NCBI GenBank assembly: GCA_046546105.1
Contig: JBKGYN010000005.1
Location: 1 to 51,118, forward strand
Direction of reading: 5' to 3'
DNA from: Candidatus Woesearchaeota archaeon
GTDB lineage: Archaea > Nanobdellota > Nanobdellia > Woesearchaeales > SKGA01
Length of the DNA: 51,118 nucleotides
Under the pieces are notes generated by a model that saw nothing but the letters and a program-made list of their open reading frames with translations, was not told the DNA's origin and ran no database searches. This document shows positions 7,005 through 51,059 of this stretch, piece after piece. The first letter of the stretch is position 1; the number at the start of each line of letters is the position of its first letter. Both the position numbers and the translations under genes were made by a program.

Positions 7005-8000
7005 ATGGTCAATGATAAGACACTCCTTTCTGACGAGGAGATTGACAACCCGTCCCAATACCAACAACAACCCGCGTCCGACAAGCAGGATTCCGGATCA
7101 AAGAGCGATATCTCAAGCGAGTATGCAACTCGCGCCAGAGAGCTTATCGACAATCTCAAGACCAGCCAATTCACAGGCGCCGGTTCGATCCCTGATGTCA
7201 ATCAGCGTTCTATCGACACCCTCATTGAAAAGATCGAGACCCTTGATAAGAAAGAGGCCAAAGGGTTTTTCGGACAACTGGTCAACTCCCTGGAAAAAGG
7301 CTTGGCAGCCTTGACCGGTCAGGACTATTTCGACACGCGCACGGGCAAGGAACTTTCCCGGACCAAGACCGAGCTCTCAAGCTACATCTCTCATGCGGAG
7401 CAGAAAGTCGGTGAGACCGAAGGGTTCATCGCAGAGTATGAGGATACGCACAGTTCTTACACGGTGGAGATCAACTCAGCCCTCAACCAGTACAAGCAGC
7501 ACGAGCACACCGTCAAGGATAAGGAAGAGCTTCTCAAGGCGATGGAGCATGAAGTCGCTAACGATCCTGCTGATGACACGCTCGAGGTCTCCATGGAGAT
7601 CGAGAACATGCGATGTGATCTTGAGATTGAACGTGACAACCTCTACAACCTTGAAGAGCATCTTGATTCCCTGCGTTACGAGCGTGATTCCTGCACGAGC
7701 GAGCTCCAGGATCTGCGCGTTGCCAAGCGTATGCTCGAGTATTCTTCACGTCTTGCAAGCCTCACTGTTAAGCGTATCGAGACATACCTCGCCCAGGAAA
7801 AGACAAGGTCTCCGTATGTCACGCTCGGGATCGGCAAGCAGCTCGACCATTCTGCTTACGAATCACAGAAGCTGCAGATTGATATCGATTCCAAGCGTAA
7901 ACAGTATTTCAACCAGATCACCGAGAAGATCCCGAAAGGTAGCGATCGTCGCAAGCACCTTCGCGACCTGCAGAAAAACTCTCCTAAAGTGAAGAGGTGA
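7005..8000 (+). CDS. Hypothetical long coiled-coil protein
   Basis: 331-aa ORF with SD GAGGTG; heptad-rich E/K/L composition. Confidence 0.8.
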   Translation: MVNDKTLLSDEEIDNPSQYQQQPASDKQDSGSKSDISSEYATRARELIDNLKTSQFTGAGSIPDVNQRSIDTLIEKIETLDKKEAKGFFGQLVNSLEKGLAALTGQDYFDTRTGKELSRTKTELSSYISHAEQKVGETEGFIAEYEDTHSSYTVEINSALNQYKQHEHTVKDKEELLKAMEHEVANDPADDTLEVSMEIENMRCDLEIERDNLYNLEEHLDSLRYERDSCTSELQDLRVAKRMLEYSSRLASLTVKRIETYLAQEKTRSPYVTLGIGKQLDHSAYESQKLQIDIDSKRKQYFNQITEKIPKGSDRRKHLRDLQKNSPKVKR

Positions 8001-13091: not shown

Positions 13092-13652
13092 ATGATGGAA
13101 CAGACTTTGGTTTTGCTCAAGCCTGACGCGGTCCAGCGCGGCCTTGTCGGCGAGATTTTGAACCGTTTCGAACGATGTGGTATGAAGATTGTCGCTATGA
13201 AGATGGTGTACGCTTCTGAAGCTATCGCTCTCGAGCATTACGATATGGATGATGACTGGTTCGAGAAAGTGGGTGCTCGTTTGAAGGAGAAGCAGGGATC
13301 TGACAAGGATCCTGTTGAGATAGGTAAGGAAGTGCAGCGGCAGCTTGCAAGCTATATCGCTCACAGTCCGATTATCGCCATGGTTCTCGAGAGCCATAAC
13401 GCGGTCAAGCACGTGCGTAAGCTTGTTGGCGAGACGAGTCCTGAAGAATCTCTGCCTGGCACGATCCGAGGGGATTACAGCTTCGACACCTACGGGCTTG
13501 CTAACGAGTCCAACCGACCTGTGATGAATATCATTCACGCATCCGGGGAAGTCGAAGAGGCAAAAAGGGAGATTAAGGTCTGGTTCAACGATGATGAGAT
13601 CCACAGCTGGAAACGGCTGGAAGAGGATTTCCTTTACATGAAAGATTTGTAA
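13092..13652 (+). CDS. ndk: Nucleoside diphosphate kinase
   Basis: EQTLVLLKPDAVQRGLVGEI, PGTIRGD and NIIHAS motifs. Confidence 0.95.
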   Translation: MMEQTLVLLKPDAVQRGLVGEILNRFERCGMKIVAMKMVYASEAIALEHYDMDDDWFEKVGARLKEKQGSDKDPVEIGKEVQRQLASYIAHSPIIAMVLESHNAVKHVRKLVGETSPEESLPGTIRGDYSFDTYGLANESNRPVMNIIHASGEVEEAKREIKVWFNDDEIHSWKRLEEDFLYMKDL

Positions 13653-46707: not shown

Positions 46708-47916
46708 TCAAGGTTTGTACGGTAGCAGGTACGGCGTCTTTTTCGCTTCTTCAGCTTCCTTGTATTTCTGCTGGATGTGGTAGAACATCTCTTTTCGCTC
46801 TTGTTTCGAGTAATACGTTTCCAGGAACTCGTTGACGAACTCTTCAAAATCCCCTTTGTTGATCGCTTCCCTGATGTCGTTCATGAATGTTGTCATGAAG
46901 TGCAGGTTGTGGATGGTAGCGAGCTTGTAGCCGAGCAGCTCGTGCTCTCGCAGGAGGTGGTGCAAGTATGCCTTGCTGTAATTCCTGCACGTGTGGCATT
47001 GGCAACCGTCCTCGATGGGTCCGTAGTCATGCTTGTACTTGACTTTCTTGACCGCTAATCGCCCTTCTCTTGTAAGCATCGATCCGTGCCTGGCGTTCGC
47101 TGTCGGATATATCGAGTCAAAACAGTCCACCCCCATCGCTACCGCTTGTATGATCTCTGCTGGCGAACCCAATCCCATGAGGTATTTGACCTTGTGCTTG
47201 TCGATGGTGTCCACGGCTACCTTGATGTTGCCGAGCAGTTCGTGGCGTTTCTCGCCGATGACAAGTCCCCCGAGCGCTATGCCGTCAAAGTCCAGTTCGT
47301 TGATCTTGTTTGTTGAGAATCGTCTGTATTCGGGTCGCACCCCTCCCTGGCTGATGCCGAACAACAATTGCTTGCTGTCAGTTTCTTTTTTGAGCTTCTT
47401 GTGGTGGAGCAGTGACCTGCGCGCCCACGAGTGTGTTCGTTTGATCGCATCGACGAATTCCTTTCCTGACTGGCCATAGTGCGTCACGTCATCGAGTGTC
47501 ATGGCAACGTCTGAACCCAGTCGCATCTGTGTCTCCACAGAGTTTTCGGGCGTGTAGTTCATCTTCTTGCCGCGCTTGTCCTTGAACAGCACCCCTTCTT
47601 CCGATTTCTTGAGCAGGAAATCCTTTGAGAGCACTTGGAAACCGCCGCTGTCGGTAAAGATCGTTTTCTTGAAGTTCATGAAATCATGGATCCCGCCGAT
47701 TCCCTCGACTACATCGGTGCCTGGCACGAGCGAGAGCAAGAACGCGTTTGAGATGATACTTTCAAAGCCGATGTCTTCCAGCTCGTCTCCTCGCATCGCC
47801 TTGACGGATCCTTTTGATGCTACTGGCATGAAAAAAGGTGTTTGGACCTTGCCGTGTGCTGTGTGCAAGAGTCCTGTCCGTGCTTGGCCGTCTTCTGCCA
47901 TGATCTCGAATGTCAT
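46708..47916 (-). CDS. tgt: tRNA-guanine transglycosylase, bacterial (queuosine-type)-like
   Basis: TPFFMPV, FTDSGGFQ, SQGG, YLMGLG, DCFD.YPT.NARHG and Zn site CQCHTC..H; no PUA domain. Confidence 0.88.
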   Translation of the reverse strand: MTFEIMAEDGQARTGLLHTAHGKVQTPFFMPVASKGSVKAMRGDELEDIGFESIISNAFLLSLVPGTDVVEGIGGIHDFMNFKKTIFTDSGGFQVLSKDFLLKKSEEGVLFKDKRGKKMNYTPENSVETQMRLGSDVAMTLDDVTHYGQSGKEFVDAIKRTHSWARRSLLHHKKLKKETDSKQLLFGISQGGVRPEYRRFSTNKINELDFDGIALGGLVIGEKRHELLGNIKVAVDTIDKHKVKYLMGLGSPAEIIQAVAMGVDCFDSIYPTANARHGSMLTREGRLAVKKVKYKHDYGPIEDGCQCHTCRNYSKAYLHHLLREHELLGYKLATIHNLHFMTTFMNDIREAINKGDFEEFVNEFLETYYSKQERKEMFYHIQQKYKEAEEAKKTPYLLPYKP

Positions 47917-48039
47917 AACAGTGGCGGGAATGCGCACGTGTTTAAAAAAGATTGTGCGCACCAGCAACCGTGTGCATTGTTGAGTGGTGTCAGAACCATA
48001 ATCATTATAAAGAGAAGCGAGAATTCTCCTCCTGATACA

Positions 48040-48570
48040 ATGAGAAATCGTTCTTGGTTGGCAAAAGCGGTCTTGTTTACTGGCACAGCAGTAACGCTTC
48101 TAGGTAGTTATAGTTGTCAACGGATCAATCCGCCAAGTCAATATGCTGATATCACTTCTGAAATCCGATTATCGGAAGAACCGGTTGATTCTGTGTTACG
48201 AGCGTATGAAGGGAATGCTGTTTCGATCGAAGGAACGTATGTCGGGCAATCTTATGAGTCCAGATTTCTCGGTGATGAATTATCGGTGCGGCTTGCTGTC
48301 GGCAGTGATACGATTGATGTTGAGGCGAGGGGCATTCCTGGTGATTACATGCGGTTGAAAAGAGGTCTTTCTCTCGATCAATCATCAGTGTCGACCGTAC
48401 AGTCCTGGCTTGCTGAGAAGAATTCGTTGGATGTGACCTTGTCAGGGATTGTTGACAATAACAAGTTTTACATGCACCGGATCAAGCATAACGGGTTGAG
48501 TTTCAACCTGTTGAAAAATGAGGAGTTCGCCGAAGGTAACCTTGTGGAATACCGGACATCAAAAAAATAA
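48040..48570 (+). CDS. Secreted/lipoprotein-like hypothetical protein
   Basis: Basic N-terminus, hydrophobic stretch, then GSYSC; TATA ATTATAAA about 30 nt upstream. Confidence 0.7.
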   Translation: MRNRSWLAKAVLFTGTAVTLLGSYSCQRINPPSQYADITSEIRLSEEPVDSVLRAYEGNAVSIEGTYVGQSYESRFLGDELSVRLAVGSDTIDVEARGIPGDYMRLKRGLSLDQSSVSTVQSWLAEKNSLDVTLSGIVDNNKFYMHRIKHNGLSFNLLKNEEFAEGNLVEYRTSKK

Positions 48571-48592
48571 CTCCTGCGAGTGTAAATTGACC

Positions 48593-49036
48593 ATGTTAAC
48601 TAAGAACGAACGTAAGGGAACAGTCGAGTATATTATCGATAAGGTTATCGAGAAAGGAACTCTTGTCAACAATACAGGCACTATCAAAAAGTACGAGGCT
48701 CATCTGCTGTATTGCTCGCTTGGCATCTTGAAGCCTGCTAATAAGAAATATTCTGCCGTCGTCGAGATTGCAGAAAGTTTCGGTAAACCTGACTTCAAAC
48801 CGGAAAGCTGGCAGGATGAATCCTTTGATGGCGTGCGAACGCTGTATCGTGGCGGCACTAATGGTTTGAACAGGGTCGTCTTGCAAGGCTTGTATTATCC
48901 TGAAGCTGACGGTCGGGTTCTTCCACCATCGGAACGGTTGCAGAGGTCTGTCAATCATGATGATGAGAGAAAATTAGCTCCTGAAGATATTGACCGTTTC
49001 GATGCGTTTCTGTCTTATGCTCGCAGGGAGTTATGA
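48593..49036 (+). CDS. Hypothetical protein
   Basis: 147-aa ORF directly downstream on the same strand. Confidence 0.6.
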   Translation: MLTKNERKGTVEYIIDKVIEKGTLVNNTGTIKKYEAHLLYCSLGILKPANKKYSAVVEIAESFGKPDFKPESWQDESFDGVRTLYRGGTNGLNRVVLQGLYYPEADGRVLPPSERLQRSVNHDDERKLAPEDIDRFDAFLSYARREL

Positions 49037-49082
49037 AGTGTTTTCGTGAGAAAAGCTATTGCAAGGATAGGAGATACGACGT

Positions 49083-49244
49083 TCAAACATCGCTTTTACC
49101 GCTTGCTTTCCTGATCTTATCCATTATCGCTTGTCCGAACCCTTCATCGTTGATTGCCTTGAGAAGTATGAGATCATGACCTTGATGGTCTGATTCCCTG
49201 AAATCCTTGAATAAGTTCTTTCCCATATCAGTTTCGTTCTCGCC
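49083..49244 (-). pseudogene. sua5: 3' remnant of sua5 (threonylcarbamoyl-AMP synthase C-terminal SUA5 domain)
   Basis: Translates GENETDMGKNLFKDFRESDHQGHDLILLKAINDEGFGQAIMDKIRKASGKSDV*, resembling the SUA5 C-terminal pattern NLF..LRE.D..G.D.I......G.G.AIM.R..KA; no upstream domain in frame. Confidence 0.6.
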
Positions 49245-49318
49245 CGAGCCGATAGGCGAAAGCGCAGCGGGGGTCGAGGCGAAGCCGAAGAAGTTTGAGA
49301 TTTGGGCGTATCAAGGAC

Positions 49319-49937
49319 GAAGTCTGAGCATTATTGAGTGTAATCACTGTTATGCGACCCGAGAGGGCGAAAAACACTGAAGAGAGAACGAGCAATTAAC
49401 TTGCGAGAGAACGAAGAAGATCGTTTTTCGGGTATGACGCAGGACTGAAAAGGACGAGTAATATCTCAGCATAATCCTTGTTATGTGTTTTTTCTGCAAG
49501 AAAAAATGCCGGAGCGAAGCGTAGGCACAGTATGGCGGAAGACAAATATTTATTGTTACTTGGAAAACAACGTGGTAATTGCTGCATAAATTAATGCTCC
49601 CATAATCATTGCTATGATTGCAATAATAATACCTGTGGGAAGTGATTCAAGAGACCAGCTCGTAGTAACACTTGCAATCATGACATCCGCAAGCGTCCCT
49701 AAAGCAATTACTATTGTTAACATTATCATTAATCGATTAGTTGTTTTATTATCCATATTATTTAGTTAATTAAACATGTATATAAATATTTGTCTGAGTA
49801 ATATTGCACATAATCACTGTTATACTCTCCGCAGGACAAGAATTTCAAGAGTGGCTTGCTCACTCGACAGAAATTCGCAGAGTAAGGCGCAAGAAGAAGT
49901 CTGAGCATTATTGAGTGTAACACATTGTATGCGTGAA
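49319..49937 (+). mobile_element. Array of four directly repeated dif-like recombination sites delimiting three cassettes (131, 339 and 107 bp)
   Basis: 11-6-11 sites at 49333-49360, 49464-49491, 49803-49830 and 49910-49937, each preceded by or overlapping a GAGYAWTAT motif; adjacent tyrosine recombinase. Confidence 0.75.
49556..49756 (-). CDS. Small two-TM membrane protein (cassette cargo)
   Basis: 66 aa, two hydrophobic helices, AT-rich, own TATA (TTTATATA at 49786-49779). Confidence 0.7.
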   Translation of the reverse strand: MDNKTTNRLMIMLTIVIALGTLADVMIASVTTSWSLESLPTGIIIAIIAMIMGALIYAAITTLFSK

Positions 49938-50118
49938 ACGCTGAATTCCTTCGTTTGGATGTGTTCATCCGCTCGTTTTTGTTGTTTCACTCAGAAAAAA
50001 CTGTTGTGTCTGGTAAGTGAGTGTCAACATCTATCATTCGCTTGTTTTCGCAATATTTCCGGATGTTATGCAGAAATCGTTTTTAAAGATGTTTGTGGCA
50101 AGGTGTTTTGATGTTCTT

Positions 50119-51059
50119 ATGACTGTTGATGTGCTGTATAATATGAAACGCGAGATGCTTCGGCGTAAGATGAGCCGGAAAACGATCTCCACATATCTGC
50201 AGTACGTTAGGCAGTTCCTTGAGTTCTGTAAGGATAATGATGTCAGACAGTTCTCGAAAAGGGATGTTCGCGCGTTTCTCATATCCCTTCAGGAGAAGGG
50301 CGTGGCTGGCTCGACTCTTAATGTCGCTCATAATGCTCTTCGTTTTCTCATGATCGATATCCTTCATAAGTCGATGTATCTCAAGCTCAAGTTCGCAAAG
50401 ACTCCTAAGCGTGCTCCTGCTCATCTTTCTAAAGAGCAGGTCGCTGCCATCCTTCGTGCTATAGTCAACCCTAAGCACTGGCTTCTGGTCGCTCTCATGT
50501 ACGGTGCGGGTCTTCGTGTGAGCGAGGTTGTCAGCTTGAAAGCATCAGATCTTGATTTTGATCGTTCCATAGGCCGGGTTCGCCATGGCAAGGGTGATAA
50601 GGAGCGCCCGTTCATTATTCCTGACATCTTGATCGGCGAGTTGAAAACCGCTTTTGTGAAAGAAATGAGAAGTGGTTGTTTTCTGGTCGGAAAGGACATT
50701 TATCAGTGAAATCAGTACGAGAGATCGTGCAACAAGCTGCTGATAAAGCAAGAAAACAACACAATCGTGAAGCAGAAACCAAATCACAGTACCCTAACAA
50801 CAGTTCCCCGAAATTAGACTACCGTCTGCAAAACCCAGAAGACCGCTCCCAGGGCCCTGTTCACAGCCCCCAGATCCCTGATAACGTCCATCCTCACATG
50901 TTCCGCCATTCCTTTACTACCCATCTATTGGAAGCGAAGTATGACGTCTCGACCGTCCAATCGCTTCTCGGTCACGTGCATCCTGCAACGACATTAGGCT
51001 ATTCTCACACGAGGCGACCGAAACTGTTGACTGCAAAGAGCCCGTTGGATGAATTTTAA
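50119..51059 (+). pseudogene. Tyrosine recombinase (Xer/integron-integrase-like) split by a -1 frameshift at about 50644-50650
   Basis: N-terminal SAM-like domain (S.KT..TY), GLRVSE, GKGDK, HMFRH, LGH, TTLGY and C-terminal KSPLD; ORFs 50119-50709 and 50676-51059 join as ELK-RFCERNEKWLFSGRKG; TATA at 50080-50087. Confidence 0.88.
50780..50880 (+). repeat. Heptamer-type tract inserted in frame in the recombinase
   Basis: AACCCAG AAGACCG CTCCCAG GGCCCTG TTCACAG CCCCCAG ATCCCTG. Confidence 0.6.

Follow-up and report, generated by a model that had tools for sequence, protein, structure and literature searches.

At the right-hand end of the window, which here means the entire 51,118-nucleotide stretch analysed (contig C5, JBKGYN010000005.1, of the 960-kb, 29-contig genome GCA_046546105.1 of a Candidatus Woesearchaeota archaeon, designated G000), four core sites of one orientation (A at 49333, B at 49464, C at 49803 and D at 49910) span positions 49333-49933, directly upstream of a frameshifted gene for a XerA-like tyrosine recombinase. 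Within this genome such sites are confined to this array. The array is read here, with a probability of about 0.8, as an integron-like cassette platform that operates on double-stranded dif-type sites, the stretch between two cores being taken as a cassette. What was observed comprises the sites themselves, covariation between the two ends of a cassette, precise deletions at cores, a shared cassette that is bounded by sites, and a constant arrangement of recombinase gene and array.

The sites of the window follow the plan ATTG-N4-TAA / 6-bp spacer / TTA-N4' (Table 1). The original prediction, made from the letters of this DNA, held that the two ends of each cassette are complementary to each other, and the strings it quoted were all located as quoted, i.e., TTATGC (49350) and GCATAA (49474) for cassette A-B, TTATGTG (49481) and CACATAA (49813) for cassette B-C, and, with one mismatch, TTATACTC (49820) and GAGTGTAA (49920) for cassette C-D. 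In agreement with its further claim that the arms pair better across a cassette than within a site, the 8-nt arms at the two ends of cassettes A-B, B-C and C-D match as reverse complements at 6, 7 and 7 of 8 positions, whereas the two arms within sites A, B, C and D match at 4, 5, 5 and 3 of 8. When the invariant TAA/TTA is left aside, the variable positions are matched at 11/15 across cassettes and at 6/20 within sites. Three cassettes are too few to exclude chance, and the pattern was therefore tested in other arrays.

Table 1. Features at the right-hand end of the window.
Feature	Coordinates	Strand	Description
Sua5 remnant	49083..49283	-	Last part of the Sua5_C domain only, beside site A
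Site A	49333..49356	+	ATTG AGTG TAA / TCACTG / TTA TGCG; outermost in the array; left flank adjoins the Sua5 remnant
Cassette A-B	49350..49474	+	125 bp from TTA to TAA, no open reading frame (ORF); ends TTATGCGA / CAGCATAA
Site B	49464..49487	+	TCTC AGCA TAA / TCCTTG / TTA TGTG; outer ATTG degenerate
Cassette B-C	49481..49813	+	333 bp; 3' end ATTGCACATAA; begins with the conserved TTTTTTCTGCAAGAAAAAA module
Cassette B-C ORF	49556-49756	-	66 aa, hydrophobic by eye only
Site C	49803..49826	+	ATTG CACA TAA / TCACTG / TTA TACT
Cassette C-D	49820..49920	+	101 bp, no ORF
Site D	49910..49933	+	ATTG AGTG TAA / CACATT / GTA TGCG; nearest to the recombinase gene
XerA-like tyrosine recombinase gene	50101..51059	+	Points away from the array

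Twenty array regions, together with locus L017, were fetched for this test, and sites were called by the fixed letters ATTG, TAA and TGTTA only (at least 11 of 12), the N4 never being used. The main covariation set consisted of 18 arrays from other genomes of the same order, from which the window, duplicate cassettes and unpublished genomes were excluded. Perfect 4/4 reverse complementarity of the N4 was found at the ends of 52 of 102 unique cassettes, whereas shuffled cassette ends gave 7.2 ± 2.5 perfect pairs with a maximum of 16, and 52 or more were reached in none of 10,000 shuffles. Hence the comparison with longer homologous arrays, which the original prediction had named as its check, came out far above shuffled pairs. 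In the set that includes the window, 52 of 103 adjacent pairs were perfect, as against 16/122 for the two arms of one site and 11/84 for sites i and i+2. Fourteen of the 18 arrays lie above their own within-array shuffle mean, and one (L038) ties with it. The covariation spans positions 4-8 from the core, which correspond to the N4 plus the adjoining G/C; at positions 9-16 from the core, complementarity was no better than in shuffles.

The N4 is diverse (about 30 types) and yet complementary within a cassette. Moreover, cassettes that share the same end modules (TTTTTTCTGCAAGAAAAAA at the start, GAGTAAT-ATTG at the end) were seen, in a listing inspected by eye, to bear either TGTG/CACA or TACG/CGTA, a two-sided change that suggests, at the level of sequence comparison, selection or conversion. 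Both features would also be accommodated by a structure-specific, integron-like system, in which the recombinase reads a single-strand hairpin and the arms drift as long as pairing is kept. This explanation is improbable, given that the pairing covers 8 bp around a 6-nt loop, too short for two recombinase-binding boxes, and that positions 9-16 show no complementarity.

Evidence for recombination at these sites in natural populations comes from Logan assembled contigs of one study, in which parts of the stretch occur in five public runs, four of them analysed (X1-X4, with X1 as the possible source sample). Contigs in X2 (depth 9.0) and X3 (depth 13.8) join position 49471 to 49918, so that, at the TAA common to both sites, the left arm of B passes into the spacer and the right arm of D, both of which are off-consensus, and one hybrid site is left. 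Cassettes B-C and C-D are precisely deleted at this joint, which has site B as its left and site D as its right partner. Correspondingly, the depth between 49524 and 49860 falls to 4.9 in X2 and to about 0 in X3, as compared with 11-14 in the flanks. The arms of such hybrid resident sites do not pair and the sites still recombine, a further argument against recognition of a folded hairpin. Some contigs agree with the window as far as exactly site A, B or C and then continue into different cassette ends or starts; in X3, both other left and other right neighbours were found at exactly site A (loose ends at 49333 and 49353). In X1, the initial 50-60 nt of cassette B-C are present at ten-fold depth before the contigs diverge, indicating that this start module is common to many cassettes. 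Only small parts of the stretch occur in X4 and X5, and X4, with 10/30 bins covered at a depth of about 2, added nothing.

The original prediction had also proposed a search for circle junctions. Contigs of 83-84 nt with three differences, present in X2 and X3, lead from the end of cassette A-B via TAA-TCCTTG-TTATG back to CGACCCGAGAGGGCG, where the same cassette starts (loose end at 49485). This end-to-start junction fits a circle junction or a tandem copy, since both would give the same contig, and the search succeeded to that extent. Of the broader proposal that excision rebuilds a near-palindromic site and that the present resident sites are hybrids, the covariation and the junction contigs lend support to both parts, the free circles themselves being predicted. 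The claim of real cassette mobility is supported by covariation above shuffles together with the B x D deletion joint. X1 also shows a "go-back" joint from 49836 to 49450 with TTGG in between, maybe from a related mini-cassette of another strain. In several other genomes (G433, G332, G419, G487), sites are often found within 30-130 nt of the end of a contig; cores seem to be points at which assemblies break, as expected if the neighbours vary within populations, and the arrays may explain why these genomes assemble poorly at this locus.

A discrete unit is also shared between lineages. A NUDIX cassette of 640 bp is common to two families, at 12571-13243 of L017 (G001, family f32) and at 7061-7734 of L021 (G026, family f22), with 90.8% identity over 674 nt; the homologous stretch begins and ends exactly at the cores, with different neighbours downstream. 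The 117 cassettes measured 73-7284 bp with a median of 697, and among the 78 of single-gene size, 58 carry one ORF that covers at least half of their length. In those 58, the ORF points away from the recombinase (minus) in 36 and towards it (plus) in 21, and because cassette genes face both ways, a single Pc-type promoter is unlikely. The gene content is what one would expect of a cassette platform: a Pfam match was obtained for 51 of 91 cassette ORFs, among them AlwI and TdeIII restriction enzymes with their methylases, PIN, HEPN/nucleotidyltransferase and Fic proteins, many NUDIX proteins, MFS transporters, hydrolases, a phosphotransferase and a queuosine salvage protein. Neither these 91 ORFs nor the cassette ORFs of L019 include a tyrosine recombinase (PF00589), and a Pfam search with the 66-aa ORF of cassette B-C gave no match. 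Mini-cassettes without ORFs occur in L024, L025, L028 and L038, as well as in the window (A-B and C-D), and some are repeated within an array. The last 25 nt of cassette C-D (49896-49920) are an exact repeat of 49319-49343.

Many cassettes share start modules just after the right arm (49481-49534 in the window; also L017, L020, L021, L023 and others). The TTTTTTCTGCAAGAAAAAA module is a hairpin with a GCA loop, and other cassette families carry an AGYGCARCG-like motif 25-35 nt in, e.g., TTTAGTGCAACG or GAGCGCAGCGGGG. An accessory protein site, a terminator or an RNA are candidates for these modules. For the 35 nt that follow the right arm, folding yielded a mean minimum free energy of -6.3, compared with -2.3 and -2.7 in control stretches, but a median z against shuffles of only -0.27, which amounts to a tendency towards small hairpins after the right arm, not a demonstrated structure. 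A search at Rfam gathering thresholds of four arrays and the window end returned no family.

Inverted 8-bp ends on each unit, with exactly 6 bp between units, would also be expected of non-autonomous transposons with short terminal inverted repeats and a 6-bp target duplication. This explanation has very little to recommend it. The spacers that flank a cassette usually differ, e.g., TCACTG / TCCTTG for cassette A-B and TCCTTG / CCCTTG for cassette 6 of L017, the sites follow the archaeal dif plan, and after deletion a single hybrid site remains intact. The arrays lack a linked transposase; among the 91 ORFs, an IS200-like Y1 transposase gene was found once, inside a single cassette (L027:7316-7777).

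The recombinase gene of the window carries a frameshift near 50665-50680 and, by comparison with an intact 271-aa relative at L012 (10004-10819), a low-complexity insert, about 40 aa in length, ahead of the HxxR box. No indel variants at the frameshift or the insert were found in the contigs of X1-X3, and the window gene is therefore likely to be either a true pseudogene or a gene with unusual expression. Only 59 nt separate it from the end of the contig, which shares a 55-nt overlap with the end of contig C19. Relatives of the recombinase with 58-64% identity (best tblastn segment) occur in Woesearchaeota and Nanoarchaeota bins, often at contig ends, and have site arrays of this kind upstream. 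The best solved relative of the intact 271-aa protein is Pyrococcus abyssi XerA (4a8e, E 9.5e-35), followed by IntI4 (2a3v), the latter matched in two stretches. Among NCBIfam models, XerA_Arch (NF040815) scores best with 192.9 bits (curated cut-off 220), the integron integrase model TIGR02249 is second with 187.3 bits in two stretches (cut-off 265), and NF011946 yields 124.6 (cut-off 435). A second recombinase of the window genome, on contig C6, reaches 240.9 bits on NF040815, passing the cut-off, and shares 40-50% identity in tblastn segments with the array-linked recombinase genes. Judging by these family scores and identities, the array-linked enzyme is a putative diverged XerA paralogue without the IntI extra domain; the split of the TIGR02249 match into two stretches is read as probable absence of the IntI-specific domain.

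These results bear on two of the alternatives. A classical integron, with IntI and folded attC as already reported in Archaea, would account for a cassette array beside a tyrosine recombinase gene and for TIGR02249 as the second-best family match, and integrons have been reported in Nanoarchaeota (PMC9668308, in the part of the paper drawn on here). Even so, it is a most improbable explanation of these arrays: the TIGR02249 score is under the cut-off and split, the protein has 271 aa, and the sites lack an R''-L''...L'-R' hairpin. Likewise, IntI4 as second-best solved relative speaks for a recombinase that reads hairpins, whereas a 271-aa protein without the IntI extra domain, with integron-integrase matches in two sub-cut-off stretches, speaks against it. 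For the preferred reading, a cassette platform on double-stranded sites, the likeness of the enzyme to XerA counts in favour.

The recombinase gene was found on the TTA side of the array and on the strand of the sites in 8/8 loci where it is within reach (6/6 without L018 and L007, which belong to the unpublished genomes G002 and G003 and enter the by-eye look and one pooled row, not the headline numbers), and in G396 the same arrangement extends across the contig origin. This constancy has to be weighed against the main rival explanation, an unlikely one, according to which the array is the chromosome's own dif region, where dif-mimicking small circles, similar to the bacterial integrative elements that exploit Xer, accumulate via the housekeeping Xer system and no dedicated platform exists. 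In line with such a role, G102 and G396, both single contigs, have one strong Xer-like gene each, the array-linked one, and a search of G102 and G000 for another ATTG..TAA-N6-TTA palindromic dif candidate gave AT-rich chance matches only. The G102 array (1,041-1,056 kb) also lies on the terminus side of a chromosome with its GC-skew minimum at ~405 kb, cdc6 at 441 kb and its skew maximum at ~932 kb. Furthermore, the recombinase adjacent to the window's array is broken and an intact canonical XerA is encoded on C6, and the Pfam matches of cassette ORFs comprise no recombinase family. Against this explanation, G000, G001 and G366 each possess a second, higher-scoring Xer-like gene (PF00589) away from the array, and in G000 it is this C6 copy that passes the NF040815 cut-off, as opposed to the diverged array-linked paralogue. 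The order and orientation of recombinase and array are constant, which is not so for the housekeeping xerA/dif pair of Thermococcales in what is drawn on here from PMC2958812, and the distance of the G102 array from the skew maximum is ~110 kb, or ~10% of the chromosome length.

Arrays of this kind are widespread. A scan with an exact pattern (ATTGNNNNTAANNNYTGTTA) gave at least one match in 152 of 401 sampled genomes of the order, many of them with 3-9 matches clustered on one strand, and the reversed control pattern was rare; site clusters were also found in other orders of the class (both tallies include the unpublished genomes G117, G211, G380 and G509). Within each array contig the matches lie on one strand, with up to 12 sites on one contig and the consensus spacer nnnYTG. 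Contigs C26 and C11 of G512 have nearly uniform left arms (ATTG AACA/CACA TAA) and the spacer CGACTG, and are a uniform-arm variant of the system.

If the array is a cassette platform, it would work as follows. In this order and in sister orders of the same class, cores stand in tandem and in one direction upstream of a gene for a XerA paralogue, and the stretch between two of them is a cassette, which usually carries one gene and has a median length of about 700 bp. Each cassette would exist, or have existed, as a circle with one symmetric site, in which G-N4-TAA and TTA-N4'-C, the inner arms of 8 bp, are reverse complements of each other. A tyrosine recombinase, presumably the adjacent XerA paralogue, would exchange strands in the TAA-spacer-TTA core between the site of the circle and a resident site, with a putative crossover inside TAA-N6-TTA. 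Integration would split the site of the circle, its right arm opening the cassette and its left arm closing it, and each resident site would therefore be a hybrid of two neighbouring cassettes. Recombination between two resident sites would delete the cassettes between them and rebuild a symmetric site on the excised product.

Integrons are the textbook prokaryotic device for capturing and shuffling single genes, defined by a special integrase and a folded attC, and their integrases are the nearest relatives of Xer recombinases. In those published in Archaea, the integrase is IntI with the additional domain, and the attC hairpins were detected with HattCI and IntegronFinder (Ghaly et al., 2022; PMC9668308; for this and the other sources compared below, the statements refer to the parts drawn on here). 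As in integrons, the present arrays consist of tandem, mostly single-gene cassettes that adjoin a tyrosine recombinase gene, resident sites are hybrids in which the first bases of a cassette pair with a motif at its own far end, and the cargo is made up of accessory, toxin-antitoxin and defence genes, with ORF-less cassettes also occurring (PMC9668308). Unlike in integrons, the sites are 20-28-bp double-strand cores with a 6-bp spacer, pairing being limited to 8 bp on each side of it, instead of attC palindromes of ~55-140 nt that fold into hairpins; the recombinase is a XerA-like protein of 271 aa in place of an IntI-family integrase with the additional domain, and the genes face both ways. 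Integron cassettes leave the array as circles and re-enter it next to the integrase gene; the observations here that bear on such a cycle are the B x D deletion joint and the circle-or-tandem junction of the 125-bp cassette. The likeness to the R''/R' complementarity of integrons, which the original prediction drew, thus holds as logic and not for the parts, since the sites are dif-type cores, not folded attC, and the recombinase is XerA-like, not IntI.

Acinetobacter likewise has gene modules that lie between dif-like 11-6-11 sites and are rearranged by Xer-type recombination; the site halves that face one module are inverted copies, ORF-less modules occur, and toxin-antitoxin modules are common (PMC13141974). 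In those pdif modules (XerC/XerD), the sites alternate in orientation and a single module is not excisable (PMC13141974). By contrast, the archaeal arrays show sites on one strand per array and XerA-type enzymes only, which implies one recombinase type instead of two with C and D modules; they are chromosomal, not plasmid-borne, and have archaeal hosts; and their ends are matched through a variable tetranucleotide specific to the cassette rather than through C-type versus D-type arms.

In site design, the arrays match the archaeal XerA/dif system of chromosome dimer resolution, to which the best solved relative of the recombinase also belongs. The dif oligonucleotide of P. abyssi reads ATTGGATATAA TCGGCC TTATATCTAAA (Cortez et al., 2010; PMC2958812) and has the same build of ATTG-N4-TAA / 6 bp / TTA-N4', with N4' complementary to N4. 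In the arrays, two ~11-bp inverted arms likewise flank a 6-bp spacer, although the outer three bases of the right arm are not conserved in the arrays. Archaeal dif is a single site near the terminus and not beside xerA (PMC2958812), whereas here many tandem sites beside a recombinase gene bound variable genes.

Integrative elements that exploit Xer, of the CTX, TLC and gonococcal island type, are circles that carry a dif-like site but no own recombinase, integrate at a chromosomal dif-type site and can form tandem stacks; they are phages or islands of several kb, present in small numbers. The cassettes share with them a dif-like site and the lack of an own recombinase, their integration being the predicted step, and differ from them in number (up to 12 sites per contig), in being mostly single-gene units and in the constant linkage to a recombinase paralogue.

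Several points weigh against the interpretation as a cassette platform, which draws on sequence and contig data. All read evidence consists of assembled contigs of one study, and X1 is perhaps the source sample; in these contigs no free circle of a gene-sized cassette was seen, and the sole circle-like junction belongs to the 125-bp cassette, in short contigs with differences. In the covariation set, 50 of 102 adjacent pairs are imperfect, and three arrays have no perfect pair at all (L033, 0/9; L022, 0/4; L029, 0/2); missed sites or rearrangements may lie behind both. In L033 (G262:C2), several non-adjacent arms pair, e.g., the right arm at 7049 with the left arm at 13601, which suggests internal rearrangement or missed sites. 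Cassettes of only 73-150 bp make up 19 of the 117, a length that may not allow them to form circles on their own. The recombinase reaches neither the XerA_Arch cut-off (192.9 against 220) nor that of integron integrase (187.3 against 265). Lastly, the window's own recombinase is frameshifted and bears an insert, yet cassette polymorphism is seen around it; the canonical XerA on C6 may act instead, or the polymorphism may be old.

A more far-reaching proposal, tentative and rather doubtful, is that the Nanoarchaeia (DPANN) possess a dedicated "Xer-integron", in which a XerA paralogue acts on ordinary double-stranded dif-type sites rather than on folded attC and compensatory change preserves the private symmetric tetranucleotide of each cassette. 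It would represent a second, independent or ancestral, gene-capture platform, and possibly a living intermediate on the way from dimer resolution to integrons. No published description of Xer/dif cassette arrays in Woesearchaeota or DPANN was found in the main text of open-access papers and bioRxiv preprints, and an earlier report may exist. As a cassette platform, the system would reach the same outcome as integrons with the simplest parts, a Xer-type recombinase and dif-type double-strand sites, in tiny-genome DPANN hosts whose routes of gene exchange are poorly known. It offers a testable model for an origin of integrons from Xer/dif, for the tolerance of a recombinase towards variable symmetric arms and for the movement of accessory genes between archaeal lineages, and its short, well-defined site may serve as a recombination tool.

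On contig C6 of G000, the canonical xerA-like gene is preceded at a distance of ~35 nt by a perfect palindrome of 24 nt, TTCGCACAATGTATATTGTGCGAA (L001, 1096-1119), which is off the dif plan and may be an operator.

The left flank of the array may have undergone a rearrangement of its own. Homology of the Sua5 remnant to the intact Sua5 of G349, a genome of the same genus in which this gene adjoins tgtA, covers 49078-49242 and ends near 49243, and sequence that resembles a cassette start (compare site 6312 of L024) begins past that point. No YrdC/Sua5 N-domain was found anywhere in this 97.7%-complete genome. The pattern suggests a secondary-site rearrangement by the recombinase of the array. 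Between tgtA and the remnant lie two ORFs without a Pfam match (47842-48570 and 48518-49036); no Xer-type sites were seen at their borders, and positions 47912-49077 of the window correspond to only ~118 nt in G349.

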